The position numbers and the translations under genes are program-made. From an uncultured Bacilli bacterium (lineage in GTDB: Bacteria; Bacillota_I; Bacilli_A; RF39; UBA660), in NCBI GenBank assembly GCA_944371525.1, contig CALVXP010000003.1:111-64110 (forward strand): a DNA stretch of 64,000 nucleotides. Direction: 5' to 3'. This document shows positions 16,596-50,651 of the stretch, piece after piece. Each line of letters opens with the position of its first letter. Position 1 is the first letter of the stretch. The notes below the pieces were generated by a model. The model was not told the DNA's origin. It saw only the letters and a program-made list of their open reading frames with translations, and made no database searches.

Positions 16596-16613
16596 ACTGT
16601 TTCCTCCTTAATA

Positions 16614-16817
16614 CTATATTAAATCTTTAATTCTCTTATAATCAGATTTGTGTAATGTGCTTCCATTTCTTTTTTGTCTTGCTCTTTTTGATGAGTTTTT
16701 ACCTGTATTATGTAATATTCCTTGTCTTGTAATTTTAATAGAACCACTTTTTCTTTTTCTAAATACTTTTGCACTTGCTTTATGAGTTTTCATTTTATTT
16801 TTCTTAACTTTTGCCAT
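16614..16817 (-). CDS. rpmI: 50S ribosomal protein L35
   Basis: MKTHKASAKVF-type sequence, located between infC and rplT. Confidence 0.93.
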   Translation of the reverse strand: MAKVKKNKMKTHKASAKVFRKRKSGSIKITRQGILHNTGKNSSKRARQKRNGSTLHKSDYKRIKDLI

Positions 16818-16831
16818 AATAAGTCCTCCTT

Positions 16832-17353: not shown

Positions 17354-17493
17354 ATTAAACACCTCCATAAACAAAAATGAATACAAGAACTGTATTCACT
17401 CACACCAAAAAAACATTTTAAATATTTTTAGGCTTTTTACCTATTGCTATTGGCAATCAGGTGAGACAAATACATCTTCTTTCCGTTTGTTCG
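17354..17493 (-). promoter_or_regulatory. L20-type autoregulatory leader with an attenuator hairpin
   Basis: A leader of about 140 nt lies between the consensus promoter and the infC RBS. It ends in GAAUACA-GUUCU-UGUAUUC (17379-17397) followed by AUUUUUGUUU. The position matches the Firmicute infC-rpmI-rplT leader. Confidence 0.55.
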
Positions 17494-17499
17494 CTATCA

Positions 17500-17528
17500 A
17501 TTATATAGTAAATTATCGTAATTGTCAA
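17500..17528 (-). promoter_or_regulatory. SigA-type promoter of infC-rpmI-rplT
   Basis: On the minus strand: TTGACA (17523-17528), 17-nt spacer, TATAAT (17500-17505). Confidence 0.6.
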
Positions 17529-17606
17529 CTATTATATTTAACTTTTTATTCTTTTTATTAATTAACCTATTATATATTATCGAATATAATATATTAGGTG
17601 ATAACT

Positions 17607-22599: not shown

Positions 22600-24964
22600 C
22601 TCCTAAAAATTCGGCATTTTTATATTCTTTTAATTCAACTATATCTTTTTGTTCCATATAACATATATCATTAAAATTACAATATTTGCATCCAATGTTT
22701 TCTTTACCAATTTTTTTAGGATTTATATCAAATGAAACATCTAAAATATTATCTCTCGCTTCTTCTATTTTTTTGTCAACTAAATCAATTAAATTATCAA
22801 TTTGTTCATTATTAATAACTTTAGAATAACTATAAAATCCAGTTTTAGTTGTTTTTAAAGATTTAATCATATTGCTATTATCATAACTATCATCAAGTTC
22901 TCTTAATATTTCTGTATTATCATTACTATAACCTTGAAGTTTTAATCCTTCTTCTAACAAACTAGTATATGTATGTTTATAATCTTTAACTATTTCTTTA
23001 TTTAATATTTTTTGTAAATAAAATCCCGCTATTTCAACATTATTTATTTTTTCCATATTTTTACTTAAATATAAATATACAGGTAATTGAAGCCCTAATC
23101 CATAAATAACATTATTAATATTAATATCAGGATTTCCGGTTTTATAATCAATAATACAAACAATAGTATTATTACCTTTTTCTTCATACAATACCTTATC
23201 TATTATTCCATTAAAAGTTACTTTTACTGTACCACTTTTATCTACACAAACTTTTTCTTCATACATTGCCTTATTTAAGCTAGTATATTGATATTGTTTT
23301 TTTATTGTATCAATAACAAACTTTAAATCTTCTTTTGCTTTTTTTATAAAGTATAATTCCTTATTAGAAAACTCATATGTCTGCTTTTCTAAAAAAGTAT
23401 TATATTCTTTATCTAAGTCAAATTCTTCTGCAAATGCTTTTGACAACACTTCATGAAACAAAGTCCCTAAAATGGTCATAAATGTTTCTTCATAAGGATT
23501 TAATTTTAAAATGTTATTTAAATAATATCTAAATCCACATTTAAAATAATTATCCATACTAGTATAAGACAATGACAATTCATTTTTTATGTATTTAGTA
23601 AATTCTTCTTTGTCTATCTTTTTATACTCATTATTATATTCTAAATAATTTATATTTTTATAATTATTATATAATAATGATAAGTCTTTATCTTTTACAC
23701 CAAACTTTACTAATTTATCAATATTTGATGCTAATTTTATTTTATTTGCTTTATCAGAATAAGTATAAAATAAATTGTCTTCTTTTATTATATCAAGTTT
23801 TAATTCATCATTTAAGTTAGAAATAGTATAACTTTCTGTATTATTTGATAATTTATAAGTAATTATTAAATTTTTTATATTATTTATTTTCGAAATAATA
23901 TATTCTTTTTCCATTTTATTTTTAATTGTAGAAGTCGTTAACCCTAACCCTGATTTTAATTTATCACTTAAATATTCTTCATCTTTATATATTGTTGGAA
24001 TAATACCATAGTTAAATCCTAATATAAAAATATAATTATCATCATCTACTTCATTATCAAAACTAATTAACTTAACACTATTTTTAAGTTCTTTTGTCTT
24101 TATATTAGTATTTTTCATATCATGAATAATTAATTCTTTTACTTCCAATAAGTTGTTTGCCCATACATATTTATTACAAATATTTATTAATTTATTAATG
24201 ATATCAACATTATCTTCATTATTATCAAATTTATTTTTAATATTATCAAAAACACTATCACCATTAATATTTTCTAAAAAGTAATTACCTATTTCTGTGC
24301 TATAAATACTTCCTTCACTAGGTAATGATACAGGAATATTATAAATTTCTGAATATCTTTTCATTATTCCATAATAGTCATTAGTAAGTCCCATTATTTT
24401 TATTTTATTTATATCTATACCCTTATTTATTAAATCTGCAATATGTTCAAACACATACTCTACTTCATCTTTAATTGTCTTAAATTCATATATATTTTTA
24501 TGTTTATATTTTGGTTCTAATATAGAAACAATATTTATATCATCACTTAATTTTTTTAACATTTTTTTATCAAAATCACTAATAAAGTGATATCCATATA
24601 CAATAATTTTCTTATTTTTATATTCGTTATATAGACTAATAATATTTAATTTATTATCTACTATTTCTTTTTGTATATCTAATAATTTTTTTATTTTTTG
24701 TTCTTTAACTTCACTATCACTAACATAAATAATATTATCTAAATATATTTTAGCAACATCATATTTTATATTATATTTACTCATTAAATAAAATATTGCT
24801 TTTTCATCATAATCAAATATAATTTTTCTTCTTAATTCTTCTAATGAAATGTATTTTATATTCGTAAGAGGCTTTTCTTTTGTTACAGTAGTTATTACTT
24901 CTTCTTTAATACTACTTGGAATAACTAAAACAGTACCATCTTCAATATAGTCTAGATAACTCAC
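22583..24964 (-). CDS. addB: ATP-dependent helicase/nuclease subunit AddB
   Basis: 793 aa. The C-terminal nuclease carries an Fe-S Cys pattern (CGFRYY...CKYCNFNDIC) and an IIDYKTG motif. Confidence 0.88.
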   Translation of the reverse strand: MSYLDYIEDGTVLVIPSSIKEEVITTVTKEKPLTNIKYISLEELRRKIIFDYDEKAIFYLMSKYNIKYDVAKIYLDNIIYVSDSEVKEQKIKKLLDIQKEIVDNKLNIISLYNEYKNKKIIVYGYHFISDFDKKMLKKLSDDINIVSILEPKYKHKNIYEFKTIKDEVEYVFEHIADLINKGIDINKIKIMGLTNDYYGIMKRYSEIYNIPVSLPSEGSIYSTEIGNYFLENINGDSVFDNIKNKFDNNEDNVDIINKLINICNKYVWANNLLEVKELIIHDMKNTNIKTKELKNSVKLISFDNEVDDDNYIFILGFNYGIIPTIYKDEEYLSDKLKSGLGLTTSTIKNKMEKEYIISKINNIKNLIITYKLSNNTESYTISNLNDELKLDIIKEDNLFYTYSDKANKIKLASNIDKLVKFGVKDKDLSLLYNNYKNINYLEYNNEYKKIDKEEFTKYIKNELSLSYTSMDNYFKCGFRYYLNNILKLNPYEETFMTILGTLFHEVLSKAFAEEFDLDKEYNTFLEKQTYEFSNKELYFIKKAKEDLKFVIDTIKKQYQYTSLNKAMYEEKVCVDKSGTVKVTFNGIIDKVLYEEKGNNTIVCIIDYKTGNPDININNVIYGLGLQLPVYLYLSKNMEKINNVEIAGFYLQKILNKEIVKDYKHTYTSLLEEGLKLQGYSNDNTEILRELDDSYDNSNMIKSLKTTKTGFYSYSKVINNEQIDNLIDLVDKKIEEARDNILDVSFDINPKKIGKENIGCKYCNFNDICYMEQKDIVELKEYKNAEFLGGENDA

Positions 24965-25968
24965 TTATTATCACCATCCATAATTTCTTTAAACATTGAA
25001 CTAGCATATTTAGATATATCAGATACATCTTTCATTTTATATTTCTTACCTATATTAGTAAAATAGTCTTTCATAGTATCTGTATCAATAATATTTGATG
25101 AATATTCTTCTTCACTTAATTCTTTTCTTCCTTCTTCCCATGGAATAGTAGTATGTGTCATTTTTTCTAATATTTTACCGCTGTAAACACCAAAATTATT
25201 TATAACAGAATCTATTAATTTAAGTTCTTTTTCATTTAAAGAATCTATCTCGTTATAACTTTCAAATTCATTTTTAGAAATAGGATTATACCTATAATAA
25301 CTAAATCTATCGTAGATTTCTCGATATACAGGTCCATGTACCCAAGCTTCAGCATTATCATTAAATATAGGTTTATCAAAGAAGTAAGTAGAAAATCCCT
25401 GAATATAATATAATATTTTTTGAAGAGCAAGTGGCGTTATATCTTCCATCTTCGCAATAATATGCTTAGATATTAAATATATTTTAGATTGATCTTCTGT
25501 TAATTTAAGTTCCATAATTTTCCCAAGCGTCTTCTTATATGCTACTTTTGTTATTAGATCTTTATTTTTTTCTAAATATTCATATAAAGTATTTGGATCT
25601 TCCAATACTTTTTTTAATATATCAGAATATGCTTTTTCTGGAGTACTTCCTTCTAAGTATCTAATAATTGTTACTTCTCCCCACCCCAAAACTAGAGAAA
25701 GTGGTTTTTTCCCTATTGCGTATTTATTTAATATTTTTTCTATTTCTTTTATAGTAATAACACCATTAATTTCTTTTACTTTTTCCGAATATTCTAGCAT
25801 ATTTTGATCATATAATTTCTCTACATAAACTTCATTATTACATTTTTTACAAATAGCATAAAATTCATTAAATAACACTATTTTATTATTAATTATTTCT
25901 TCTTTAATTCTTTTCTTTATTTTATATTCCACTAATTCGTTACATATTTCACAAAAAGTTTTACTCAC
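24961..25968 (-). CDS. Antitoxin-like protein: MqsA/YgiT-type zinc ribbon + HTH + DUF4065 (SocA/Panacea) domain
   Basis: The N-terminus is CEICN...CKKCN. The middle is ITIKEIEKILNKYAIGKKPLSLVLGWGEVTIIRYLEG. The DUF4065-like part is LQKILYYIQGFSTYFFDKPIFNDNAEAWVHGPVYREIY. The stop overlaps the addB start by 4 nt. Confidence 0.7.
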   Translation of the reverse strand: MSKTFCEICNELVEYKIKKRIKEEIINNKIVLFNEFYAICKKCNNEVYVEKLYDQNMLEYSEKVKEINGVITIKEIEKILNKYAIGKKPLSLVLGWGEVTIIRYLEGSTPEKAYSDILKKVLEDPNTLYEYLEKNKDLITKVAYKKTLGKIMELKLTEDQSKIYLISKHIIAKMEDITPLALQKILYYIQGFSTYFFDKPIFNDNAEAWVHGPVYREIYDRFSYYRYNPISKNEFESYNEIDSLNEKELKLIDSVINNFGVYSGKILEKMTHTTIPWEEGRKELSEEEYSSNIIDTDTMKDYFTNIGKKYKMKDVSDISKYASSMFKEIMDGDNK

Positions 25969-32253: not shown

Positions 32254-32697
32254 ATGCAAATTGGAGAAATATCAAAGAAAACTGGATTATCAATATCAAC
32301 ATTAAGATATTATGATAAACATGGATTATTACAAAATATAAATAGATCAAATGGTGGTATAAGAAAATTTGATGATAAAGATTTAGAAGCCTTAAGAATA
32401 ATTATATGTTTAAAAACATCAGGTATGAAGATTTCTGAAATCAAACAATTTATGGATTGGTGTAGTAAAGGAGATACCACTATTGATAAAAGATTAAATA
32501 TGTTCTATCAGCAAGAAAAAAATATCAATGAACAAATTGATATTCTTAATAAATCACTAAAATTAATTAAATTTAAACAGTGGTATTATGAAGCTGCTAA
32601 AAGAGATGGCACTGAAAAGAATGTAAAAGATATGAATTTAGATGATTATCCTGACGATATTAGAAAATTATATGAAGAAGCTCACATAATTTGGTGA
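32254..32697 (+). CDS. MerR-family transcriptional regulator
   Basis: MQIGEISKKTGLSISTLRYYDKHGLL is a MerR HTH. The ATG at 32254 follows a GGAGG RBS. Confidence 0.9.
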   Translation: MQIGEISKKTGLSISTLRYYDKHGLLQNINRSNGGIRKFDDKDLEALRIIICLKTSGMKISEIKQFMDWCSKGDTTIDKRLNMFYQQEKNINEQIDILNKSLKLIKFKQWYYEAAKRDGTEKNVKDMNLDDYPDDIRKLYEEAHIIW

Positions 32698-32719
32698 GTT
32701 TCTTTATAAATATATATTT

Positions 32720-34684
32720 TTATAATTCTCCTTTATAAAAATATATTTTCATAGCATCTTCACTATATGCAGGTTTTGATATATCTATATTTAAAAAATT
32801 TGATATATAATATATTAAAAATTGAGAAGCAACTAATAAATCATATTCACATAAAATTCCATCATATCTACTTTCAATTATTAAATTTTTATCTTTTGAT
32901 AAATAATCTAATAATTTATTTTCATATGAACTTGTGCTTTTTTGTTTTAAATAGATATTTTTATTTTGACTTAAATGTTCATAATTAATAAATCTTCCAT
33001 GAGAAAAATTTTTCTTTTCATGAACTAAACAATTATAAATACCTGATTCTACTATTTTACTTTCTAGATCATTACCTGCAGATTCTGTAAAATCTCCTGT
33101 AAAAATATTTATTTGTCCACCTTCAGTTAAGAAATCCTCTAACATTTGTTTATTATCTTTAAAATATATATCAAAATATTCTCTCCAATACTTTATACTA
33201 TTTTTAATAAAATCATTAATATTACCAATTGATTGATTTTCAAAATATAGTTTTAAAAATAAACTTGATGGTGATAATGCTCCTTCAAAAGATAGAAATC
33301 CCTTTTCTTTTCCCTTATTTGTTCCTGTTCGATATGAAATAATATTATTTTTTGATATTCCTGTTTTTGTTACTATTTTTTGAAGTTCTCCTTTTGTTAT
33401 AATATATTTATTTTTATTATCAATTAAACTTGTTGCTACTAATAAATCATTAGTGGTTCCCGAATAAGTAAACAAAAATAAACAATCTATCTTTTTATTA
33501 TTTCTATAATATACATCTCTAGGATATAATGCAACTGTATTTGTTCCGTATAAGTAATTAATAACTTTTGAAGAAAATTTTGCAGCCGCAAAAGAACCAC
33601 CAGTTCCTAAAAAAATACTATTATCTAAATCTTTAAAGTTTATTTTTATTAATTTTTCATATGCATTACTATTAACAGCATTAATTACTCTTGCTTCTAA
33701 ATTATTTATATTAATGTTACATCTTTTAATTTGCTTTCTTGTTGATATTTCAAAATTATTGCAAGTACAAATATCTGTTATTTTTTTTATTTTATATAAT
33801 GGTTGGATATGACCTCTAGCGCCAAATTTTTTTACAACTTTTTTTGTAAGACTTGTAGCTTTTAAAAAAGTTGTATCAATAAATTTTTCATCAATTACAT
33901 AATTATTTTTTACATAGAAACTAATAAATACAGAAAAGAAGGCATCTCCTGCTCCTGTTGGATCAATTTCTACTTCAGGATTAGACAATTCTTTAGTTAT
34001 TTTTTTATTATTTATTATAAAATCTGCTCCTTTTTTACCCCTTGTAACAATTATCATCTTAGGTTTTAAAATATTATATATATCTTCAAGTGAATTTAAA
34101 GAAAATCTATTTATTAAATATTTTTCAACACGTTCATTTAAATTTATAATATCAAATTTATTTTCTATTTTTTTAATCAATTCTTCAGCACTATAATTAT
34201 CTAATTCAAAATATTGACCTAAATCCAACATTTTTTTATTTTCACAATTATTAATAATAATTTGGTTTTTAATATTTAAATTATCAAACACCAAAACATC
34301 TTCTATGTTAATTTTCTTTAATATATCATCAGTATTTATATTACTTTCTTCATACCATTGTTTTTGATTACATATCGGACATCTCTTTTTTGATTTAAAT
34401 TCTAATTTTCCATTTTCTTCAATATATGATACATGAAAACAACGTGTTTTTATATTTTCCATAATTTCTACATTATCAGTGTTTACGCCAATATCTTTTA
34501 AACTTTTTAATGCAACATTACCTGTAACATCTTGTCCACATACTCCATAAACTGCTGTATCTAACCCTATTTTAGCTATATTAGCAATTATATTATGAGA
34601 TGTCATTCCACCATTAACCCCAACTAGTTTTCCATTTTTATAATAAAAATCTGTAACTAAATCACCTATACTAATTATTTTCAT
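32720..34684 (-). CDS. Fusion protein: PfkB-family kinase (with a Cys/His insert) + tandem SIS (sugar isomerase/deglycase-like) module
   Basis: The N-terminus is MKIISIGDLVTDF... with DPTGAGDAFFSVF (PfkB signature 2). The insert reads RCFH...CPICN. The C-terminus has FLGTGGSFAAAKF and LFLFTYSGTTNDL, which are SIS motifs, followed by a second SIS-like half. The start is the ATG at 34684, 7 nt after AAGGAG. Confidence 0.7.
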   Translation of the reverse strand: MKIISIGDLVTDFYYKNGKLVGVNGGMTSHNIIANIAKIGLDTAVYGVCGQDVTGNVALKSLKDIGVNTDNVEIMENIKTRCFHVSYIEENGKLEFKSKKRCPICNQKQWYEESNINTDDILKKINIEDVLVFDNLNIKNQIIINNCENKKMLDLGQYFELDNYSAEELIKKIENKFDIINLNERVEKYLINRFSLNSLEDIYNILKPKMIIVTRGKKGADFIINNKKITKELSNPEVEIDPTGAGDAFFSVFISFYVKNNYVIDEKFIDTTFLKATSLTKKVVKKFGARGHIQPLYKIKKITDICTCNNFEISTRKQIKRCNININNLEARVINAVNSNAYEKLIKINFKDLDNSIFLGTGGSFAAAKFSSKVINYLYGTNTVALYPRDVYYRNNKKIDCLFLFTYSGTTNDLLVATSLIDNKNKYIITKGELQKIVTKTGISKNNIISYRTGTNKGKEKGFLSFEGALSPSSLFLKLYFENQSIGNINDFIKNSIKYWREYFDIYFKDNKQMLEDFLTEGGQINIFTGDFTESAGNDLESKIVESGIYNCLVHEKKNFSHGRFINYEHLSQNKNIYLKQKSTSSYENKLLDYLSKDKNLIIESRYDGILCEYDLLVASQFLIYYISNFLNIDISKPAYSEDAMKIYFYKGEL

Positions 34685-34695
34685 TTTTGTACTCC

Positions 34696-35337
34696 TTATA
34701 TATTTCTTTCTAACCACTCATATAAATATTTATCTTTAAAAGCATGAGATGTTAAAAAATGATTATCATCTTTAATTATTTTTAATTCTATATTATCTAC
34801 ATTCATTTTCTTTAATTTATCATATGCATCATAGCTTTCTTTAACATCTATAACATCATCCCTATCTCCATGATAAATTAAAATTTTTTTTTCTAATACA
34901 TTTATTAAAGTATCTGGTATTGCTAACATTATACCTCCTGATACTGATACTATACCTTTAAATAAATTTGGTCTAGATATTATATAATTCCATGCTCCAA
35001 AAGCTCCCATACTACTTCCTAATATGCAAACTCTTTCTTTATCATATTTATAATCCTTATATACTTCTACCATAATCCTTTCTACATCTCTAAGATGATA
35101 ATCCCAAAAGTTAGAATAACTACATTGTGGAGCTATTACTATGTAAGGTATATCATATATATTCATATATTTAGGTAAAGCATACTTTTCCACATCTTCT
35201 ATATGATTACCTCTTTCCCCTATTCCATGTAAAAATAATAACAAAGGCATATTGTCGACTACTTTTTCTGGATAATATATTATATAATTCATTTTCTCAT
35301 TATTATTAATAAGTATTTGTTTATATTTTTTTAACAT
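34696..35337 (-). CDS. Alpha/beta-hydrolase esterase (carboxylesterase/PHB-depolymerase-like)
   Basis: LLLFLHGIGERG, the GSSMG nucleophile elbow, GDRDDV and DDNHF are present, giving a Ser-Asp-His triad. Confidence 0.75.
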   Translation of the reverse strand: MLKKYKQILINNNEKMNYIIYYPEKVVDNMPLLLFLHGIGERGNHIEDVEKYALPKYMNIYDIPYIVIAPQCSYSNFWDYHLRDVERIMVEVYKDYKYDKERVCILGSSMGAFGAWNYIISRPNLFKGIVSVSGGIMLAIPDTLINVLEKKILIYHGDRDDVIDVKESYDAYDKLKKMNVDNIELKIIKDDNHFLTSHAFKDKYLYEWLERNI

Positions 35338-36019
35338 ATATTTTCTCCTTTTTTTCTATTGCATTTTTAATTTCAATATTATTTATAATATTTTGTAAAT
35401 TATTAAAAAATAATCCCATATGTACTCCATCTTGAAAAGCATGATTTACTAATAAAGAAATATCTATTATATAACTATTATTATCTTCATAATATTTTCC
35501 CCAACAAATTTTAGGTTTACTATTTTTTTCCGAATAATCTATTGCATCCTTAAAATTTGAAAACGGAATCCAAGGAATACAAGTAATATTTACTTTATTC
35601 ATATCATCTAAATTGGGAATTTTATAATACATTTCCCCGTTAGAAGCATCATCAATTGCTTTTTGGAATGTATTTATAAATTGTTGAAAATCATTTGAAA
35701 ATTTTATATATCTTGTAAAATTCAATTCATTATCTTCATTCAATGTAGTTACAGAAACTGCCAAATCTTCATATTTATAAATATATTGCTTCCCATTTTC
35801 TTTCCCGTATCCATAATGAAAAGCATCTATTTCATTTAAAGATGATAATACATAATACGACATAGCAGCATAAAATGAAATATTATAATATTTACAATAA
35901 TTAACAAGATTTGTTACATCAATTTTGGTTACAATTCCTGTATAAGGATCTTCATAATTAGAAAATATATTATATGCTATTTTTCTTTTCCAATTATTAA
36001 TTTCTATTTGCTTTCTCAT
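35321..36019 (-). CDS. Chloramphenicol-acetyltransferase-family (CAT fold) acyltransferase, substrate unknown
   Basis: INNWKRK...ITCIPWIPFSNF...GKYYEDNNSYIIDISLLVNHAFQDGVHMG aligns with the CAT segment ...[30 protein letters not shown]. The catalytic His is retained. Confidence 0.75.
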   Translation of the reverse strand: MRKQIEINNWKRKIAYNIFSNYEDPYTGIVTKIDVTNLVNYCKYYNISFYAAMSYYVLSSLNEIDAFHYGYGKENGKQYIYKYEDLAVSVTTLNEDNELNFTRYIKFSNDFQQFINTFQKAIDDASNGEMYYKIPNLDDMNKVNITCIPWIPFSNFKDAIDYSEKNSKPKICWGKYYEDNNSYIIDISLLVNHAFQDGVHMGLFFNNLQNIINNIEIKNAIEKKEKIYVKKI

Positions 36020-38339
36020 TTTTCACCTTTCTTTTTAAACATAAAACTTCACTTTCTCTAGAATAATCACCGTTTTTTACTAAACATTCTAATATTTTTC
36101 TTCTGTTTAGATCAAAAATTCCTAATGAATCTTCGTATGGATTTAAACTATATGGATTTCTCCAACTGTATGGACTAGGAAAATATAATCCTTCTATAAA
36201 TTCAAAAAAATGTTTATAGTCAATGGCCCCATGATTCGGCATAAACATTTGACTAATTCTATTAACACTTGGATATCTAACAACAATTATTTTGTTAACG
36301 TCTATTTCTACATCATATAATACTGTTAGTGCTATTTGCATAGTTTTGCCAGTTAATAAGTTATCATCAAATATAATGTATTTTTTTCTCTTATCAATTC
36401 CTAAAAGTTCAATACCACCATTTTCAAAAATATTAAAAAATCTTAAATCTAATGACTGTTTTTTTGAATAACCTGTTACATTTTTATTAAATTTTAATAC
36501 AGATACATCGCTTATCCTATTATTAATTGATTTCATCAAAATAGGTAGTTCTAATCCACCATAGCAAATGCCACAAATTCCTTTATTATAAATATCTGAA
36601 TCTTTCTGAAGTGTTAAATAACAGGTTATGAAGTTTTCAGCAAAATTATCAATTTCTCTATATGCTCTAAAATCCTTAGAATAATTTTCTTTTTCTATAC
36701 TTTTCTCAAAATCCATTTTAAATTTATTTATAATTAAAATTACATTTTTTATCAATAATTCAATCTCTTTACAATTAATAATATAATTATTATCAAAAGA
36801 AATTTTTCCCATTAGTTTTTCTACTACTAACAAACTTGCATAAGTTTTATAAATAATTGTATCTTTATTTATGTTTTCAAAATTTAACATTATATTTTTT
36901 TCCACATTTCTACTAATTATTTGCTGATTTAATATAATTAACAAACAATTTCTAATATTATCAATTAAACCTAATATCATTTTCATATTGCAATAATCAT
37001 TTAAATCAATTTTAGAATTTATAGCTTCTAATGCTCCTACATAAAAACTTATATTATTATTTAACCATTCTATAATCATTTCCTTTGTAGTTGTATCTTC
37101 TCTAGTTTCTTCATTATGAGATCTTTGCGATAAAAAATAATAATATGTTTGTGATCCCCTTAATAATATGTTTTGATTATCAAACATTGCATAACATAAT
37201 GATGATTCTTTTTTAGTTAACCATAGTTTTTTCAATAAATTATCATTTGATATAGAAATCCATTCATACATAGGAATTTTTACACTTCCACTAGAAGCAT
37301 CAAATAAACTATTAACTCCATCAATATTTTGAAATTTTAAATTTACTAAATTATTAAAATATGAAATTTTTTTAATTTTACCCAAATTCATATCTTTCTC
37401 TATTTTAGCATAAGCTTGGGTATATTCATTTTCTGTCGCATGTTCTAAACAAATTGTTGGTAATAACTTAACTTTGTTTATTAAAGATAATGTTGCGTTT
37501 ACTCCTGTTATTATTTTTCCATTTTCAATTACAGGAAAACACTTATCAATTTCACCACTTACCTTATCTACACTAAATCCTTGTGGACAATTTAACATGG
37601 AATAATCATTTCCATACCTATCTCCACAATCTCCTATTCTTAACATTGAATTTTGAGGAATTCCAATGATCCTTTCTGCAATATTAATAGCTGTATTTTT
37701 TGTAGCAGTACCAATTTGTAAAATTCGTTTTCCTTCATGTATACCCATTGTTAAATTTAAATTTGAATTTTTTGTATCGGCAATCAAGGAAGCAATCATG
37801 TCAATTATTTTATTAGCAATTTGTTCATCATCTATTAAAACTAACAACCTTATATTAATTATAATATCATTACTCAAATCTTTTGAATAAGAAATTTGAC
37901 AACAATTTTTTAATGATGTTGTCTCTAAAATCTTTTTAATTTTTTCATTTAATTCTCTTAAACATGTTAAATCTTCTGGGGTAGATATATATTCACTCAC
38001 ATTAAAAATTTGACTGCTATTTTTACTAGTCATAAATATTCTAGCTCCATCATTTGTAAGCGCATACATTCTTTGTAATTGTCTATCTGTCACTCCATAT
38101 TTATTTTTTAAATCATTAACAATTTCCTTTGATAAATCATTTAGACCAGTTTCTCCTCTACCAGTTATAAAAACCACAGTAATATGTTTTTTTAATATAT
38201 TGGCTAACATAGGTAAAACACGAACATCAATTTTCTTTGAATTGTTTTCTGTTAATGTTCCATCTATATCAAAACAAACAGCATTATATTTTTGATTTAA
38301 AGATTTTCCGTAATTATTTATTAATTCTTCATTTATCAT
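35997..38339 (-). CDS. Three-part fusion: HAD-IIB phosphatase + uncharacterised middle region + phosphoribosyltransferase (PRTase) domain
   Basis: The HAD part has VCFDIDGTLTEN, ITGRG and IGDCGDRYGNDYSML. The C-terminal PRPP-binding loop is KKYIIFDDNLLTGKTMQ. About 300 aa in the middle carry no motif I recognise. Confidence 0.7.
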   Translation of the reverse strand: MINEELINNYGKSLNQKYNAVCFDIDGTLTENNSKKIDVRVLPMLANILKKHITVVFITGRGETGLNDLSKEIVNDLKNKYGVTDRQLQRMYALTNDGARIFMTSKNSSQIFNVSEYISTPEDLTCLRELNEKIKKILETTSLKNCCQISYSKDLSNDIIINIRLLVLIDDEQIANKIIDMIASLIADTKNSNLNLTMGIHEGKRILQIGTATKNTAINIAERIIGIPQNSMLRIGDCGDRYGNDYSMLNCPQGFSVDKVSGEIDKCFPVIENGKIITGVNATLSLINKVKLLPTICLEHATENEYTQAYAKIEKDMNLGKIKKISYFNNLVNLKFQNIDGVNSLFDASSGSVKIPMYEWISISNDNLLKKLWLTKKESSLCYAMFDNQNILLRGSQTYYYFLSQRSHNEETREDTTTKEMIIEWLNNNISFYVGALEAINSKIDLNDYCNMKMILGLIDNIRNCLLIILNQQIISRNVEKNIMLNFENINKDTIIYKTYASLLVVEKLMGKISFDNNYIINCKEIELLIKNVILIINKFKMDFEKSIEKENYSKDFRAYREIDNFAENFITCYLTLQKDSDIYNKGICGICYGGLELPILMKSINNRISDVSVLKFNKNVTGYSKKQSLDLRFFNIFENGGIELLGIDKRKKYIIFDDNLLTGKTMQIALTVLYDVEIDVNKIIVVRYPSVNRISQMFMPNHGAIDYKHFFEFIEGLYFPSPYSWRNPYSLNPYEDSLGIFDLNRRKILECLVKNGDYSRESEVLCLKRKVKNEKANRN

Positions 38340-38349
38340 AAAAATCTCC

Positions 38350-38829
38350 TTATAAAATTTTCTCTAAAGTTTTTATTGTCATAAATTCTTGTGTAGAAAC
38401 TTGTTCCTCATTAAAATAAATACCTGTCCCCCCTTTTTGTTTCCAATCTACAAGATTCTTTATGCTGTCATCTATTAAAATTTCTCCATTATTTGGTAAA
38501 TATATTTGACTCTTTTTTATATGTGGTGGAACAAATAATATTGGAATTTTTATTTTTCTACTTCTTAATGCCTTTGTTTTTGCTTCCATTTCAAGCAATG
38601 TATGAATTTTAGTTAAAACTGCCAATTGTTTAGTTCTAGTTTGACCATCTAATATATAATCGATTGCATTATTTATAACTTTGGCTTCATCTAACAATTG
38701 AAACCAATCAAGATTGTCAAAAAATTCATTCCAGGTAAGATTAGGATTTTCATTTTTCCTTTCAGCAACTCTTTTTTCTGTATCAAAAATTACGCCATCA
38801 AAATCAATAAAAATTTTTTTGTTATTCAT
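38350..38829 (-). CDS. Small HAD-superfamily nucleotidase (NT5C / deoxyribonucleotidase-like)
   Basis: KIFIDFDGVIFDT...LIDDS. The start is the ATG at 38827-38829, after GAGGTG. Confidence 0.65.
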   Translation of the reverse strand: MNNKKIFIDFDGVIFDTEKRVAERKNENPNLTWNEFFDNLDWFQLLDEAKVINNAIDYILDGQTRTKQLAVLTKIHTLLEMEAKTKALRSRKIKIPILFVPPHIKKSQIYLPNNGEILIDDSIKNLVDWKQKGGTGIYFNEEQVSTQEFMTIKTLEKIL

Positions 38830-38851
38830 AAAAAACACCTCATTTAAATAT

Positions 38852-38860
38852 ATTATAGCA
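38852..38860 (-). promoter_or_regulatory. Extended -10 element (TGCTATAAT) between the WYL gene and the enzyme genes
   Basis: The minus strand reads TGCTATAAT, about 20 nt upstream of the small-HAD start. There is no good -35. Confidence 0.35.
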
Positions 38861-38886
38861 TATATATAGGAAGTATTTGGTCTATA

Positions 38887-39480
38887 TTATTTTTGATTCA
38901 ATTTTATTCTACTGATTTCAAAATGTCTTATATCATCTCGTAATTCACAATAAGCTGTTACATAAAATTGATCATCATATTTAAAAATTTGTAATGGATG
39001 AATTATTCTTTCCTGCCATTCCTGATTTAAACTTCTATATAAAATTTTTAATGGATTTTTATTTGTAATTGCATCATTTAACGCAAAATATAATTTTGAT
39101 TTATCTTTAACTGAATAATCTAAAAAATATTTACTTTTTTCTTCTTCTATATCATTAGACATTTGCACTTTATTAATTATTTTTTCATATTTTTTGATAT
39201 TTTCATAATTTATTTCTTTTAAGATATTATCTACATTATTTAATATTTGCAAATCATATTTATTAAAATGATTATACTGATTTTTAGGGTTCAATATATA
39301 ATACCCTCCATTAGGTCCCATAAATGTTTCTATTGAAATTCCCGCTTGTTCTAATTCAGCTTTATAATACCTAACCATACGTTCGGTAATACCTATTTTT
39401 TCAGCTAAATCTTTAACACTATATTTATTTCCTGTGTTTAAATAATTTAACATTTCAATAGCATTTGAAATTTTTCCCAT
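38887..39480 (-). CDS. HTH + WYL domain transcriptional regulator (short; no obvious WCX extension)
   Basis: The N-terminal wHTH reads YSVKDLAEKIGITERMVRYYKAELEQAGISIE. The C-terminal WYL-like part reads ILYRSLNQEWQERIIHPLQIFKYDDQFYVTAYCELRDDIRHFEISRI. Confidence 0.8.
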   Translation of the reverse strand: MGKISNAIEMLNYLNTGNKYSVKDLAEKIGITERMVRYYKAELEQAGISIETFMGPNGGYYILNPKNQYNHFNKYDLQILNNVDNILKEINYENIKKYEKIINKVQMSNDIEEEKSKYFLDYSVKDKSKLYFALNDAITNKNPLKILYRSLNQEWQERIIHPLQIFKYDDQFYVTAYCELRDDIRHFEISRIKLNQK

Positions 39481-39688
39481 TTTTTCACCCTATTCTATTT
39501 TAATAACTTTGTATTTAAAATATAATTTAAAATATATTTTTTCTCTTTTTTCTATATTTTACCATAAGTATAACTACTAAACAACAAATTTACTGTTTAC
39601 AAAAACAATTTATATAAAAAATAATCTCTAATTTTTAAATTACTATTATAAAAACTCTTCATGAAGTATCATAGTTATATTTAGTCTA

Positions 39689-39821
39689 ATTTTACAAAAT
39701 ACTAAAATATTTATTTTAAAAATTTCATGTTCTTTAGTTTATTAAAATTTACTTAAATTTGATAGAATTTAATTGGTTGCTCGTCTAGAAATACACCTAA
39801 TATTTTAGTATTTTGTAAAAT
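39689..39821. repeat. Perfect 23-bp inverted repeat separated by 87 bp
   Basis: ATTTTACAAAATACTAAAATATT at 39689-39711 has its exact reverse complement at 39799-39821. The element lies in the 628-bp gap between the DUF2075 cassette and the WYL gene. Confidence 0.85.
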
Positions 39822-40091
39822 CCCTTTATGATAATTTGTTCATTTTTCATATATATCACTAAATATTTCTAAATAAATTAATACATAACATTTTCTCCAA
39901 TTTAATAAATTTTCTTGTATCAATTATTTTATTTACTAGTATATATTATTAACATCAAACTAATAAGATAAAAATAAAAATAGAAAATGTATTAAAATTA
40001 AATTCGTTATCAATCACAAATACTATTCCAATTGATATTACTATAAAAATAATTGTAAATAAATTATTTTAATTATCATTTGAATTATATA

Positions 40092-40126
40092 TATTAAAAA
40101 AGAGCAACTCAATTAATGTTGTTCTT
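40092..40126 (-). terminator. Intrinsic terminator of the MazG-HEPN-DUF2075 cassette
   Basis: On the minus strand, AAGAACAAC-N9-GUUGCUCUU (one G-U pair) is followed by UUUUUAAUAU. The loop contains the TGA stop. Confidence 0.6.
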
Positions 40127-41986
40127 AAGATATTTTTGTAATTTTTTATCAGTGCAATAAACATAGCAACCTTTCATACCTCTAGTCATTAATGTTCTAT
40201 AAGTATTTTTTATTATATTATCCGCTATTTTATCAGCAACTTCTTTCCCTTGATCTTTAGCAATCTTTTTAATTCCATTTAATGAAGTATCAGTCTTAGC
40301 TCTTTTTGTATAATCTGTTATTATATGACCATTTTCATATCGTAAATCATCACCTATAATTACCCCAACATAATCAAATTCTAATCCTTGGCATGTATGA
40401 ATACAACCAACTTCATTGATTGATTCTGAATCAATAGCCCAAGTACTAGAATTGCCTAAATTCCAGCTCATTCCAAAATTATATTCTGGTATTTCAATAT
40501 CGTGTACATCACTATTATTTTTCCCTTCAGATATCCAATTCCAACAATAGCCTGCAACTATTCTAGATTTATTATTAGTTCTATTTTTTTTCTCAATCAA
40601 TCTTCTAACTTCATTAGGATCATCTAATACTCTAAAATCATAATCAAATCCATCTATATCAAAGTTAGCAGTATCTTTAATATCCAATACTCTATCAAGC
40701 CATGCAATATAACCATCTGATCCATTACATCGAAATTGACTATCCAAATCAAATGTATAAATACCTGCTTTTTGTTCTTTGGCAAATATTTTAATTAAAT
40801 CTTCACTACCAATATCTTTTAAAGTGACTTTTTGATTTTCATCAATAAAGAATATAGAAAATTTACTAGCATTAATAATTTCTTTAATTTGATTTTCACC
40901 TTTATTTTGAAACATACCTGATTTAGCATTTAATCTATGAGCTTCATCTACTACTAAACAATCTAACTTATTTCTCTCTTCATCTATAAAACTACCAGAT
41001 CCTTGAAACAAATGATTAATATAAGTTTGGGTATAATCTCCTCTTAACTTACTAGAATATACACTTCTTGGTGCAGCATTTTTTGTAACATAAAAACATG
41101 TCATATTTCTATTATTTAATTCAACTAATAAATTAACTGCTAAAACGGATTTACCAGTACCTGGTCCACCTCTAACTATCATTACATTTTTATCATTAGC
41201 AGACACTGTATCAATTGCATTTCTTAAAGCATATTCATAAACAATCTTTTGATTATCTATCATATAGAATTCTTTATTACCTTTTAGCATATTTTTTAAA
41301 GAATCCTGTAACATTTTTGATGGTCTGATTTTTCCATGATCTATTTCATATAAAATATCCCCATCATCACCATCTTCGATATATTTCTTAATAAAATTTC
41401 TTAATTTAATAACATCATTATGTCCAAATAAAGGTGCTTTATCAGTGTATTCTTTATAATTATTTGATAATAGTGTATCACCATCTTCAAAATAATAATT
41501 ATGAAGATATGCACATGGAACAACATTAATATCTTTTAATTGAACTGATTCGTTATAGTCTTTAATTAGATTTGCGTAAGTCATGGCTTGATAAGAAGGA
41601 TGATTAACATCTCTTAATCCTCCACCAGTATAAGTATTAACTTTATATATACCATCCATTTCTTTAACTTCAGTTACCTTATCCCATTGTTTTAACTCTA
41701 TTATTACAACATTAGATTTATCCTTATTATAACCAGACATCATAAAGTCAATTCTACACCCAGTTGGAGGTATATTGTATTCTATAGCTATACCAGTATT
41801 ATTCGGTATATCATTATCAGAGAGTACACCTCTCATATATTGCATAGAATTTTTCCATGAATTAAATTCTGGTGCACTAGGCCTTTTCTTTATAACTTCA
41901 ATATATTTATTTCTTATTTTATCAGCTATTATTCCTAAGTCTACATCATCAATAAAACCTGATTTAATGCCCTCGTATACTAACAT
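40109..41986 (-). CDS. DUF2075-type protein: N-terminal PD-(D/E)XK nuclease-like domain + SF1-like P-loop helicase/ATPase
   Basis: CRIDFMMSGYNKDKSNVVIIELKQW gives D...E-x-K. GGPGTGKS is Walker A and LVVDEAHRL is Walker B. HTCQGLEFDYVGVIIG and YRTLMTRGMKGCYVYC are typical DUF2075 C-terminal motifs. Confidence 0.8.
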   Translation of the reverse strand: MLVYEGIKSGFIDDVDLGIIADKIRNKYIEVIKKRPSAPEFNSWKNSMQYMRGVLSDNDIPNNTGIAIEYNIPPTGCRIDFMMSGYNKDKSNVVIIELKQWDKVTEVKEMDGIYKVNTYTGGGLRDVNHPSYQAMTYANLIKDYNESVQLKDINVVPCAYLHNYYFEDGDTLLSNNYKEYTDKAPLFGHNDVIKLRNFIKKYIEDGDDGDILYEIDHGKIRPSKMLQDSLKNMLKGNKEFYMIDNQKIVYEYALRNAIDTVSANDKNVMIVRGGPGTGKSVLAVNLLVELNNRNMTCFYVTKNAAPRSVYSSKLRGDYTQTYINHLFQGSGSFIDEERNKLDCLVVDEAHRLNAKSGMFQNKGENQIKEIINASKFSIFFIDENQKVTLKDIGSEDLIKIFAKEQKAGIYTFDLDSQFRCNGSDGYIAWLDRVLDIKDTANFDIDGFDYDFRVLDDPNEVRRLIEKKNRTNNKSRIVAGYCWNWISEGKNNSDVHDIEIPEYNFGMSWNLGNSSTWAIDSESINEVGCIHTCQGLEFDYVGVIIGDDLRYENGHIITDYTKRAKTDTSLNGIKKIAKDQGKEVADKIADNIIKNTYRTLMTRGMKGCYVYCTDKKLQKYLKNNIN

Positions 41987-41989
41987 ATT

Positions 41990-42565
41990 TTACTTCTCCT
42001 TATCAAAATTCAAACTAAAATGCAACCCCAATTTATCATCATCATATTCCTTACTAAGTTTAACACATTCTTCCATAATATAATTCAATATCTTCTTAGA
42101 TAATAATATCTGTGTATTAAGGAACTCAAAATTCTTATCATATATATCTTCTATTTCTAATAAATATTTAATTTCTATATGTCCATACATTTTATCTCTT
42201 AAAGTATTTATATTTTCAATAGTATCTTTATAATTAGATAATTCATTTCTTATCTTTTTCACTTCTTTATTTAATTTTTCTTTTCCTTCCTGTTCACACA
42301 AATTTAATAATTTCCAAATTGAAAGACTCTTAGGATTATTATCAAATATATTTCCCATTCCAATTACAATTCTATATCTCATAGAATCAAGAATAGTTGA
42401 AAACAATGAAGGAAAATCATTAAGTTTTTCTAATATCCTATTATCTTCTAAATTCGTACAAATAAAATATTGTTTAATTGCTTCTCGAATATCTTTACAT
42501 TGAAAATATATAGTAAATAAAACATTTTGCAACCTCGTTGCTTCATCACCCTTAATATACAACAT
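41990..42565 (-). CDS. HEPN-domain protein (AbiU2/AbiV-like)
   Basis: The protein is all-helical by composition and carries an Rx4-6H motif, LRDKMYGH. Its stop is 3 nt before the DUF2075 start. The start is uncertain; the ATG at 42565 is preferred over the track's GTG at 42634, which overlaps the MazG gene. Confidence 0.55.
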   Translation of the reverse strand: MLYIKGDEATRLQNVLFTIYFQCKDIREAIKQYFICTNLEDNRILEKLNDFPSLFSTILDSMRYRIVIGMGNIFDNNPKSLSIWKLLNLCEQEGKEKLNKEVKKIRNELSNYKDTIENINTLRDKMYGHIEIKYLLEIEDIYDKNFEFLNTQILLSKKILNYIMEECVKLSKEYDDDKLGLHFSLNFDKEK

Positions 42566-42572
42566 ATGCACT

Positions 42573-42887
42573 CTATAATTTATTATACTTTGTACTATTT
42601 CCTTTTGCTTTTTCAACAGGATACTTCTTAGCACTTATTTTCATTTTTTCTAAAACTATTTCTTTAGGATCTACTCCAATTTGATGACATAATAAAATAC
42701 AATAATTCATAACATCTGCAATTTCATACTTTAACTCATTTTTATCATAATTGTTATTCCATTGAAAACATTCTAATAACTCTCCCGCTTCAATTACTAT
42801 GCTTTTGGCTAAATTTTCAGGTGTATTAAATTGTAACCAATCTCTTTCTTCTGCAAATTTAACTATTTTACTTTCTAATTCTTTCAT
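42573..42887 (-). CDS. MazG-like all-alpha nucleoside-triphosphate pyrophosphohydrolase (DCTPP1/RS21-C6-like)
   Basis: FAEERDWLQFNTPENLAKSIVIEAGELLECFQW...EIADVMNYCILLC...KKYP, in a 104-aa protein. Confidence 0.8.
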   Translation of the reverse strand: MKELESKIVKFAEERDWLQFNTPENLAKSIVIEAGELLECFQWNNNYDKNELKYEIADVMNYCILLCHQIGVDPKEIVLEKMKISAKKYPVEKAKGNSTKYNKL

Positions 42888-49428: not shown

Positions 49429-49429
49429 A

Positions 49430-49897
49430 CTATTCACCGTTATTTGTCCATCCTATTTCATCTAATGATGGGTGCTTATTTCCTGTAACAACATAAGGAT
49501 TATCTCCTTCACCAGTAGATTCTCTAGTCAAAAAGTATTGAACATTATAAAAATTCAATTGTTCTTCACTAAAACTTTCTAATGTAGATGATGCTATTTC
49601 CTTAGCTTTAGTAGAATCAATATCACTATTAAATGTAAGAATTACATTAATTATCTTTCCTTGAATTCTAACATTAGCGTCTTTTACTCCTTCTTTTTCT
49701 TTCATTTCTATTGCAATAGTATCTAATTCATCATTAGAAATTTCTACTTCTTCTATTCCATCTAATCTATTTCCATATTTATTAGAAGAACCTCCAACTA
49801 ATAACATTACAAAAAATACTAATATAATTAACAATAGAACTAAAGAAATCCCCACAGCAATAGCTAATTTCTTATGTTTTTTAATTAAATCTTTCAT
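49430..49897 (-). CDS. Hypothetical membrane-anchored protein
   Basis: An N-terminal TM segment is followed by a domain of about 110 aa. The ATG at 49897 follows GGAGG. No motif was recognised. Confidence 0.45.
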   Translation of the reverse strand: MKDLIKKHKKLAIAVGISLVLLLIILVFFVMLLVGGSSNKYGNRLDGIEEVEISNDELDTIAIEMKEKEGVKDANVRIQGKIINVILTFNSDIDSTKAKEIASSTLESFSEEQLNFYNVQYFLTRESTGEGDNPYVVTGNKHPSLDEIGWTNNGE

Positions 49898-50560: not shown

Positions 50561-50651
50561 GGAGACGTACTCAAGAGGCTGAAGAGGCGCCCCTGCTAAG
50601 GGTGTAGACCGGGAAACTGGTGCGAGGGTTCAAATCCCTCCGTCTCCGCCA
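50561..50651 (+). tRNA. tRNA-Ser (anticodon GCU), long variable arm, CCA encoded
   Basis: The acceptor stem GGAGACG pairs with CGTCTCC. The anticodon loop is CU-GCU-AA. There is a long extra arm (GGTGTAGACCGGGAAACTGGTGC), a T-arm GAGGGTTCAAATCCCTC, and a 3' GCCA end. Confidence 0.93.

Follow-up and report, generated by a model that had tools for sequence, protein, structure and literature searches.

The subject of this report is a cluster of six genes on the minus strand (39480-32720) of a 64,000-nucleotide stretch of DNA from an uncultured Bacilli bacterium (contig CALVXP010000003.1, positions 111 to 64,110; the whole stretch is hereafter called the window). Two of the genes code for multidomain fusion proteins: a 780-aa protein combining a HAD phosphatase, a middle domain (MID) and a phosphoribosyltransferase (PRTase), here termed HAD::PRT, and a 654-aa protein combining a PfkB-family kinase with a double SIS module, here termed PfkB::SIS. 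According to our sequence comparisons, these two fusion proteins are the invariant unit of the cluster, the WYL-domain regulator and the small HAD protein encoded beside them being additions made in the lineage. We tentatively favor the reading, without going so far as to call it probable, that the locus is a conserved module which makes or tailors a ribosylated small molecule (nucleoside-like or ribosylamine-derived) from phosphoribosyl pyrophosphate (PRPP).

Conservation of the cluster

A search of one genome per GTDB species returned 23 species loci. The two fusion genes are adjacent in all of them, and the order WYL, small HAD, HAD::PRT, PfkB::SIS recurs in 22 of these species-level genomes, so that the arrangement is far beyond chance. 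Taken singly, the WYL gene is syntenic in 22/23 loci and the small HAD is present in 21/23. The flanking genes vary between species and are mostly housekeeping genes in the annotated loci (PcrA/LigA/IleRS, MraY/FtsW, RNase J/PNPase, GyrB). In comparison to genome L033, the HAD::PRT fusion shows 53% and PfkB::SIS 64% sequence identity. Because RecG gives a comparable value (53%), the cluster is, as judged by these identities, vertically inherited under housekeeping-level constraint, so that a role in defence can only be conjectured for this lineage. Genomes of the lineage are roughly 1-1.6 Mb in size, and two contigs carrying the cluster exceed 1 Mb. Since the genomes are small, genes retained in them are expected to matter to this uncultured human-gut Bacilli lineage.

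The wider family, delineated by a profile search of 1.84 billion representatives, numbers 813 clusters at the 50% identity level; matches below 1e-30 account for 183. Among the best 149 representatives, 75 have the architecture HAD-MID-PRT and 35 consist of MID-PRT only, which identifies MID plus PRTase as the invariant module. The fusions define a large unnamed family, and its middle domain is without a family model. Relatives with only about 28% sequence identity (loci L038, L039/L040, and L044) still have a full-length PfkB::SIS gene immediately downstream, and these partners align end to end with the window protein (E 1e-84 to 3e-91). The GC content across the relatives' loci is 24-43%. 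The preliminary description of this DNA had envisaged that the WYL gene and both fusions co-occur in unrelated genomes. This is correct for the fusion pair, down to about 28% identity, but not for the WYL gene, which is absent from L030, L038, L039, and L044 and is thus not a constant partner. Neither fusion has an end-to-end match to a characterized enzyme. Sequence alignment indicates that, although members of the family are only about 25-30% identical, none of the four enzyme domains shows variation in its catalytic motifs.

The HAD::PRT fusion protein

The HAD::PRT gene (38339-35997, minus strand) codes for three domains. Residue conservation and profile matches were evaluated for 28 diverse homologues, which are 24-43% identical to the 780-aa protein. 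The AlphaFold2 model of the complete protein has a predicted local distance difference test score (pLDDT) of 85 and a predicted template modeling score (pTM) of 0.84.

The N-terminal domain (residues 1-295; 37455-38339, minus strand) has, by its sequence and its model, the motifs I-IV and the C2B cap which characterize Cof-type HAD-IIB phosphatases, with D24/D26, K214, D237, and N244/D245 intact. The window protein itself matches HAD-IIB model TIGR01484 at 8e-9, which is under the curated cut-off; Cof/HAD-IIB models (TIGR00099 or TIGR01484) match 22/28 homologues (best 1e-13). Across the homologues, D24 of the DIDGT motif does not vary and D26 is conserved to 90% or more; each of G60/R61/G62, K214, and the residues of the GDxxxxxxND segment (D237, N244, D245) likewise shows either no variation or a conservation of at least 90%. 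When the 780-aa model was compared to the PDB by Foldseek, only HAD matches were among the best 50 listed; comparison to a viral library gave weak PRTase matches (0.015-0.03). The modeled fold matches HAD-IIB structures, the best being those of ISN1, the IMP-specific 5'-nucleotidase (6RME, 3e-8; 8J6H, 5e-7), followed by trehalose-6-phosphate phosphatase and Cof phosphatases (1.7e-7 to 1e-5). However, ISN1 has only 12-16% identity to the fused HAD, and because the trehalose-6-phosphate and Cof phosphatases score almost equally, the substrate class is not fixed by the ISN1 match.

The middle domain (residues 296-560; 36660-37454, minus strand) is always found together with the PRTase. It has no Pfam, NCBIfam or PDB sequence match; it is confidently modeled by AlphaFold2 as a mostly helical domain and has the invariant residues R394, G395, Y399, and D460.

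The C-terminal domain (residues 561-780; 35997-36659, minus strand) is a probable type I PRTase domain with PRPP loop YIIFDDNLLTGKTM, a YGGxELP loop, and conserved hood residues (R688, P690, N693, R694, H703). Three residues of the PRPP loop (DDNxxTGxT) show no variation in the homologues (D659, N660, T663) and two a conservation of at least 90% (D658, T666), so that the protein has the PRPP-binding loop by which type I PRTases are recognized. Model PF00156 matches the window protein weakly (E 0.02, 14.6 bits with a cut-off of 26.3) and matches 9/28 homologues, the best at 4e-6; for one relative (P0421), a PF00156 match is precomputed. Further weak matches are to PyrR, HGPRT, APRT, and Prs.

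In one species (L024/L025/L026, around 11958-11991, P0106), HAD::PRT is split into ORFs of 655 aa and 112-122 aa, right at the PRPP-binding loop. As the same split recurs on 12 contigs, including assemblies exceeding 1 Mb, it may be a real frameshift, a split gene or a recoding site rather than an assembly error. HAD::PRT is also in two pieces in the metagenome-assembled genomes of L005, L015, L017, L018, and L022, with mapped break points that differ.

The PfkB::SIS fusion protein

The PfkB::SIS gene (34684-32720, minus strand) could alternatively start at 34717. The start codon is likely ATG 34684, because the resulting length of 654 aa equals that of every homologue. Its N-terminal part (33785-34684) is a PfkB-family kinase domain (PF00294, 5e-19; 69 bits with a cut-off of 25.8) in which the catalytic motif TGAGDAF is invariant, as expected for the family. 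In Foldseek comparisons, sugar kinases and nucleoside kinases match equally well (about 4e-15); because the list is filled with PfkB kinases of every substrate class, it holds no clue to the substrate.

The remainder (32720-33784) consists of a linker and a predicted double SIS module of the GlmS/NagB-II/FrlB type, with the motifs GTGGS, YSGTTxD, and DLESKxxESG...HEKKxFSHGRF. Within the window protein, this C-terminal part matches SIS model PF01380 only weakly (0.064), while the full-length homologues from L038 and L039 match at 3e-8 and 4e-8. A profile of the C-terminal 340 aa retrieved from the PDB glucosamine 6-phosphate (GlcN6P) deaminase 1J5X (1.9e-5), 2AML (9e-4), GlmS isomerase domains, and also NagB-II and the FrlB-like protein 2A3N (E 0.75). 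GTGGS and YSGTTxD are invariant in SIS1, and SIS1 alone aligns to solved structures. The AlphaFold2 model of PfkB::SIS is poor (overall pLDDT 60.6) because the homologues used were at least 73% identical; therefore the second SIS domain is only putative. The SIS2 signature seems akin to the E488/H504 motif of GlmS.

A CPxC...WY insert in the PfkB lid (residues 102-105) is invariant even in relatives with 31% identity, and three cysteines of the linker (C306, C308, C322) are conserved only in the close lineage. These cysteines (window 33700-34400; residues 102-105 and 306-322) may constitute a metal or redox site.

Gene organization, promoter, and the WYL regulator

The ORF check of the window confirmed all six minus-strand genes listed in the preliminary description, together with their junctions (34684/34696, 35321/35337, 35997/36019, 38339/38350, and 38829/38887), and the domain assignment of each product was upheld. 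Adjacent enzyme genes overlap by 23 nt or 17 nt or are otherwise separated by 10-11 nt. Ribosome-binding sites were said to overlap stop codons, which can be specified as TAAGGAG sequences over the stop codons of the small HAD and esterase genes. A weak terminator-like hairpin (32681-32698, minus strand) follows the PfkB::SIS stop codon and is common to the convergent MerR gene; it derives from a consensus scan only.

The WYL gene (39480-38887, minus strand) codes for a 197-aa transcription factor with a winged helix-turn-helix (wHTH) and a WYL domain (PF13280, 7e-16); the N-terminus is HTH_11/Rrf2-like. With a match to PADLOC model PDLC01457 at 8.7e-27, the protein has the wHTH plus WYL architecture of BrxR/CapW-type regulators. 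Its stop codon is separated by 57 nt from the start of the small HAD gene, and these contain a near-consensus sigma-70-type promoter (38852-38884, minus strand). This promoter consists of a -35 element TAGACC (38884-38879), a 17-nt spacer AAATACTTCCTATATAT, and an extended -10 element TGCTATAAT (38860-38852). Its consensus, tAGACa-(AATAtTtCCTAtAtaTa)-TGnTAtAAT, is found in all 19 distinct loci, including loci with proteins only 52-61% identical, and in the window the motif occurs once at 0 mismatches.

The preliminary description had presented the cluster as an operon led by the WYL gene. Because WYL and the small HAD gene are separated by the conserved promoter, the enzyme genes are, on the evidence of this element, a transcription unit separate from WYL, and the WYL gene is its own unit upstream of them. 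The spacer is conserved so strongly that this is best explained by a protein-binding site, and we infer that it is a candidate WYL operator; the sequence AATACTTCCTATAT in 38840-38890 is part of this candidate binding region. The enzyme unit is thus probably repressed by WYL. A second copy of the operator motif was sought upstream of WYL (39481-39830, and the whole gap 39481-40108) and was not found. This 628-bp gap between the DUF2075 gene and WYL is very AT-rich and without any ORF of at least 32 aa. The conserved promoter with its spacer is a directly testable candidate operator and offers a route to the WYL ligand.

The WYL protein resembles BrxR, CapW, DriD, and PafBC in its N-terminal wHTH followed by WYL, in the position of its gene directly upstream of the presumed targets, and in that a conserved DNA element is found in the target promoter. 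It differs from them in that the targets are metabolic-type enzymes, and from BrxR/CapW in having no recognizable C-terminal extension domain; with 197 aa it is presumably shorter than either of the latter. Within the 23 species loci, moreover, the WYL gene is consistently placed ahead of this enzyme cluster and is not regularly associated with known defence systems.

In the L030 lineage, WYL has been lost and the small HAD is left only as a truncated remnant. The remnant (MNNKKILIDFDGVIFDTE followed by a stop; around 9800-10000 in L030-L032) is accompanied by a -10 element TAGTATAAT upstream of the HAD::PRT gene. As the fusions are kept in this lineage, both the regulator and the small HAD are dispensable, and as enzyme genes are retained in lineages without WYL, the enzymes are not toxic in themselves.

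The small HAD and the variable slot

The small HAD gene (38829-38350, minus strand; alternative start 38838) codes for 159 aa with the DxD motif FIDFDGVIFDT. It likely starts with ATG 38829 and not with GTG 38838, since the latter sits within a GAGGTG ribosome-binding site. The protein resembles NT5C-type deoxyribonucleotidases (phrog_2643 "5'-3' deoxyribonucleotidase", 3e-15) and has neither a Pfam match nor a PDB sequence match.

Two accessory genes occupy a variable slot between the fusion genes. The first (36019-35321, minus strand) codes for a 232-aa CatA-like O-acyltransferase of the chloramphenicol acetyltransferase (CAT) fold (PF00302, 4e-22; 79.5 bits with a cut-off of 23.5; solved CAT structures, 6e-21), which retains the catalytic His (NHAFQDGVH) typical of this fold. 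Its identity as a CatA resistance gene was rejected (101 for the NCBIfam CatA equivalog, with a cut-off of 270). The second (35337-34696, minus strand) codes for a 213-aa alpha/beta-hydrolase-type esterase with a GSSMG nucleophile elbow (Peptidase_S9, 5e-13; Abhydrolase_2, 3e-12). Both had been listed as regular members of the cluster; they are accessory, as CAT plus esterase is found in only 7/23 species loci, including L004, whose contig stops behind CAT. Of the loci with an esterase gene, 6 also have CAT and 4 lack it; 11 loci have neither gene. In L017, the slot contains an NrnA-like DHH phosphoesterase (3e-18 to solved NrnA/DHH proteins) and an APH-type kinase, which is 34% identical to a kinase adjoining a distant family member in L034.

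Locus L027 has an NAD-salvage block (1-8702; NrtR-like, NadK, PncA, PncB, NUDIX, NadE, NadD) immediately ahead of the cluster. After the cluster (14381-17595), this locus has an NT5C::PlsC-type acyltransferase fusion and an AMP-binding ligase, so that nucleotidase and acylation enzymes are again found beside the core.

Contexts of distant relatives

Some distant relatives are fused to further domains. Calcineurin-like phosphoesterase domains (Metallophos) are fused to the N-terminus of P0301, P0334, and two others. P0287 (locus L036) has a TIR domain at its N-terminus, and the gene after it codes for a kinase of PfkB type only. In P0276, HAD-MID-PRT is fused to a TrpF (phosphoribosylanthranilate isomerase) domain (4e-13) and to a second ribulose-phosphate barrel. 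The neighborhoods differ widely: a dGTPase-like HD protein, a reverse transcriptase (RT)-nitrilase, and an SLFN_AlbA_2 protein in L037; an N6 methylase, an Abi_C protein, and a ResIII endonuclease preceding the genes in L044; a phospholipase D-type nuclease preceding them in L038; and NADAR neighbors in L045 and L034, one of which matches an anti-phage NADAR model. In L039, the genes lie among those for RNase J, FtsK, and PNPase and have no regulator.

Among 72,556 plasmid records, one carrier was found, Bacillus cereus plasmid pRML02 (NZ_CP011157.1, L046). The plasmid codes, in this order, for a MID-PRT, a CatA-like, and an NT5C-type HAD protein; over 483 aa, the MID-PRT protein shares 28% identity with residues 324-765 of the window protein (2e-30). 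The CAT is 31% identical to the window CAT (4e-36); the window small HAD is not BLAST-similar to the NT5C-type HAD of pRML02. The trio belongs to an unannotated cluster (102046-115042) which also codes for a BtrH-like/DUF6005 acyltransferase, an aminotransferase, an acyl carrier protein, a pyridoxal phosphate-dependent decarboxylase, two adenylate-forming enzymes (one CoA-ligase-like), and an ABC transporter, a gene content resembling that of natural-product biosynthesis. An extra metG gene (methionyl-tRNA synthetase) is located about 3 kb from the trio on the other strand. An additional tRNA-synthetase copy next to biosynthetic genes is a typical sign of self-resistance, and the pRML02 cluster possibly produces a compound targeting a tRNA synthetase.

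The same ordered trio is found in L034, where CAT and HAD are 36% and 32% identical to the pRML02 proteins. There, a CAT homologous to that of the window (2.9e-51) is encoded beside MID-PRT, which carries a fused TyrRS/TrpRS-like domain; a second TyrRS, this one complete, is encoded nearby. This region (7577-15939) starts with a RelA/SpoT-type protein and an APH/fructosamine-kinase-like kinase and continues with the MID-PRT fusion, CAT, NT5C-type HAD, an Imp-YgjV membrane protein, and TyrRS; it is flanked by NUDIX and NADAR genes.

A metagenome scan returned a single short contig. As a viral-contig scan and a phage collection contained no relatives, a phage origin was dropped.

Comparison with known systems

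The preliminary description had recognized the gene set neither as a named pathway nor as a named defence system, and both statements stand: all NCBIfam matches are far below their cut-offs, and, with the exception of the WYL regulator itself, there is no PADLOC match, the small HAD, HAD::PRT, CAT, esterase, and PfkB::SIS proteins having none in PADLOC-DB v2 at E <= 0.01. No description of the cluster was found in the literature searched.

Like FrlD/FrlB and the GlmS/NagB-II/AgaS proteins, the cluster couples a PfkB kinase to a predicted double SIS module of about 340 aa with canonical SIS phosphate-binding motifs; among solved structures, this module is most closely related to GlcN6P deaminases, GlmS isomerase domains, and a FrlB-like protein. 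In contrast to FrlD/FrlB, kinase and isomerase are a single polypeptide, always paired with the HAD::PRTase protein, frl-type transporters and regulators are lacking, and the FrlD and SIS scores are far below the cut-offs. The FrlBD pathway was rejected (FrlD model NF007321, 25 bits with a cut-off of 247, residues 12-88 only; 2A3N, E 0.75), as was a ribose-1-phosphate kinase/pentose-bisphosphate route, with scores far below the cut-off. The ADP-heptose pathway (GmhA, HldE, GmhB) likewise combines the SIS, PfkB, and HAD superfamilies on one sugar phosphate and then adds a nucleotide-type group. It differs in having a single-domain GmhA rather than a GlmS-type double SIS and a nucleotidyltransferase in place of the PRTase; also, the HAD of our cluster is a Cof-type IIB enzyme, while GmhB is a HAD of type IIIA. 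This pathway was rejected, too (rfaE_dom_I, 37 bits, 1.9e-9, with a cut-off of 345; the listed matches include no GmhA or GmhB model).

Similarities to nucleoside natural products concern the overall logic: PRPP serves a type I PRTase as the starting material for a nucleotide, whose nucleoside is freed by a dedicated phosphatase, and acyl masking as well as extra target copies occur in relatives of the window module. The minimycin and tubercidin clusters are reportedly likely examples of such a PRTase-plus-phosphatase logic. Ter-associated PRTases have been proposed to make the nucleotide of a nucleoside-like metabolite (PMC5512222). However, there is no sequence-level membership in these pathways (PRTase_2 matches 1/28 homologues, at 0.004), and nothing in them corresponds to the middle domain, the HAD-IIB fusion or the PfkB::SIS partner.

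HAD, calcineurin-like, and PRTase domains are also used against nucleotide pools in several defence systems: PUA-Cal-HAD, in which calcineurin-CE plus HAD is a validated effector depleting deoxynucleoside triphosphates (PMC12871103); DS-9, a metallophosphatase plus HAD (PMC13092281); ShosT, a PRTase toxin (PMC11961720); and Retron-Eco11 with a PRTase-like effector (PMC12746101). Some relatives of the window proteins carry calcineurin-like or TIR domains or reside in defence-like islands. The window cluster, however, has neither a calcineurin-like nor a PUA domain (Metallophos is confined to distant relatives such as P0301 and P0334), neither an antitoxin nor a retron RT or non-coding RNA, and, in contrast to such effectors, its enzymes are kept without the regulator in some lineages.

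Possible function of the module

According to the reading which we tentatively favor, the PRTase would join PRPP with a base or amine to form an N-(5-phosphoribosyl) compound, from which the fused HAD and the NT5C-like small HAD could remove the phosphate to leave a free riboside. The double SIS module may carry out an aldose/ketose (Amadori-type) isomerization of a sugar-phosphate or ribosylamine intermediate, a step in which it would be replaced by the fused TrpF in one relative, and the PfkB kinase would supply or re-phosphorylate the isomerized intermediate. TrpF is an Amadori-rearrangement enzyme acting on a phosphoribosylamine. As TrpF and SIS enzymes of the GlmS/FrlB type, which have unrelated folds, both catalyze Amadori-type aldose/ketose-amine isomerizations, we infer a phosphoribosylamine-type intermediate. 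CAT and esterase might add and remove a masking acetyl group, and the APH-type kinase and NrnA-like phosphoesterase of one relative might do the same with phosphate. Because the slot is occupied by an acetyltransferase plus an esterase, or by a kinase plus a phosphoesterase, these pairs look like a reversible masking of a bioactive compound, masking being the usual way in which producers handle a bioactive product. WYL would repress the strong promoter via the conserved spacer and release it upon a signal. The product could serve in competition or against phages, or it could be a metabolite particular to the lineage. That a nucleoside- or sugar-phosphate-like product is derived from PRPP had already been surmised in the preliminary description and gains comparative support from the pRML02 cluster and the domain fusions.

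Several points weigh against this assignment. The scores of PRTase and SIS in the window proteins are weak (0.02 and 0.064), so these calls lean on homologue profiles. In this lineage, no exporter, immunity gene or extra tRNA synthetase is found inside the cluster. The cluster evolves as slowly as RecG and sits among housekeeping genes where annotated, a pattern that, taken at face value, fits core metabolism better than a conflict weapon; the retention of the enzymes without WYL in some lineages speaks against a role in conflict as well. Four loci have the esterase without CAT, unlike a simple mask/unmask pair. The relatives from pRML02 and L034 lack the fused HAD and PfkB::SIS, and their chemistry may differ. 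Finally, the order of steps is a guess, because SIS isomerases need a free anomeric carbon. A farther-reaching proposal, which we regard as speculative and rather unlikely, is that the fusion pair is the core of an unrecognized, widespread pathway to a bioactive ribosylated molecule that is masked by exchangeable enzyme pairs adding and removing acetyl or phosphate, gated by WYL, and used in conflict with phages or competitors in a major uncultured human-gut lineage. Its products could be, for example, a nucleoside analogue or an aminoacyl-adenylate mimic hitting replication or tRNA synthetases.

The housekeeping pattern leads to another explanation, less convincing to us than a biosynthetic module and on balance somewhat unlikely: salvage or catabolism in an auxotroph with a small genome. 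PfkB would phosphorylate a scavenged ketoamine, aminosugar or riboside, the double SIS would deglycate or deaminate it like FrlD/FrlB or NagB-II, PRTase and HAD would recycle the freed base or amine between base, nucleotide, and nucleoside, and WYL would be a metabolite-sensing repressor of a catabolic promoter. Vertical inheritance at housekeeping rate among core genes, presence of the cluster in all 23 species found, the GlcN6P deaminases and GlmS/FrlB-like proteins as best PDB relatives of SIS, weak NCBIfam matches to fructoselysine 6-kinase and ribose-1-phosphate kinases, the NAD-salvage genes directly preceding the cluster in L027, and the tolerance of presumably constitutive expression in lineages without WYL all agree with it. 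Yet no locus has a transporter gene inside the cluster, every NCBIfam pathway model scores far under its cut-off, and pairs of adding and removing enzymes in the variable slot are atypical of catabolism. Nor does salvage account for relatives fused to TIR or calcineurin-like domains or located beside restriction, Abi, RT-nitrilase, and dGTPase-like genes, or for the CAT/NT5C/MID-PRT trio in a natural-product-like cluster; moreover, known WYL regulators sense nucleic acids or nucleotides (PMC9122601).

Those same relatives count in favor of a third reading, in which the cluster is an effector induced against phages or under stress and depletes the pools of nucleotides, PRPP or ATP in the manner of PUA-Cal-HAD, DS-9, and ShosT. 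Upon WYL derepression, PRTase and phosphatases would turn bases plus PRPP, or (deoxy)nucleoside monophosphates, into nucleosides and so starve phage replication, while kinase and SIS would burn ATP and sugar phosphates. In addition to the TIR and calcineurin-like fusions and the defence-island-like neighborhoods in L037, L044, and L038, it is supported by the MazG/HEPN_AbiU2/DUF2075 cassette which the window cluster abuts and by the NADAR genes, one of them of the anti-phage type, which adjoin two relatives. It also agrees with the validated calcineurin-CE plus HAD effector (PMC12871103) and the ShosT toxin (PMC11961720), with ISN1, an IMP nucleotidase, as the closest fold to the HAD, and with WYL regulators often gating defence systems (PMC9122601). 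We nevertheless consider pool depletion quite improbable. None of the enzymes has a PADLOC match, relatives are absent from phage collections and occur on a single plasmid of 72,556, conservation rate and flanks in the lineage are unlike those of typical defence genes, and the SIS isomerase has no evident part in it. Lineages without WYL keep intact enzyme genes behind a promoter, contrary to what is expected of a toxic abortive-infection effector. An accidental juxtaposition of unrelated metabolic and resistance genes (CAT, esterase, sugar kinase) without shared function is hardly credible: CAT and APH are classic antibiotic-resistance families and CAT and esterase are missing from about half of the loci, but the gene order is conserved in 22/23 species despite shuffled flanks, genes overlap or are 10-11 nt apart, the fusion pair is retained at about 28% identity, and a homologous CAT recurs beside MID-PRT in three independent architectures.

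The relatives tie the module to TIR/calcineurin-like effectors and defence islands as well as to a natural-product-like plasmid cluster with a spare tRNA synthetase. Once identified, the product could turn out to be a new bioactive compound of nucleoside type or a new immune metabolite of the gut microbiota; alternatively, its identification could uncover a new salvage route which explains the life of these auxotrophs.

Neighboring genes in the window

The window has a GC content of about 23% and represents chromosomal DNA, with genes for AddA/AddB, ComEC, SecDF, and RecG. Directly upstream of WYL, between recG and the cluster, is a three-gene cassette (40109-42887, minus strand) coding for a MazG-like pyrophosphatase (PF12643, 1.4e-18), a HEPN_AbiU2 protein (PF18734, 8e-16), and a DUF2075/Schlafen-group-3 helicase (PF09848, 4e-108) with weak PADLOC matches to PDC-S41, AbiO, and Nhi. 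In none of the 23 related species loci is this cassette, or any of its DUF2075, HEPN, and MazG genes, found beside WYL or the cluster. The adjacency to HEPN/DUF2075 genes, to which attention had been drawn, is thus specific to this genome, the other annotated loci of the lineage having housekeeping flanks, and the cassette has the look of a candidate defence system in its own right that was inserted at this point, with recG on one side and the cluster on the other.

The AddB-like nuclease gene is overlapped by the gene immediately downstream (24961-25968, minus strand), which codes for 335 aa and contains a SocA/Panacea antitoxin domain (PF13274, 2.5e-22). The only Rfam match in the window is a tRNA (50561-50648). 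A 679-aa GGDEF-domain protein is encoded at 47398-49437. Since one WYL regulator has been reported to be a sensor of cyclic di-GMP (PMC11880434), the presence of a diguanylate cyclase in a small genome may be relevant to the WYL ligand.

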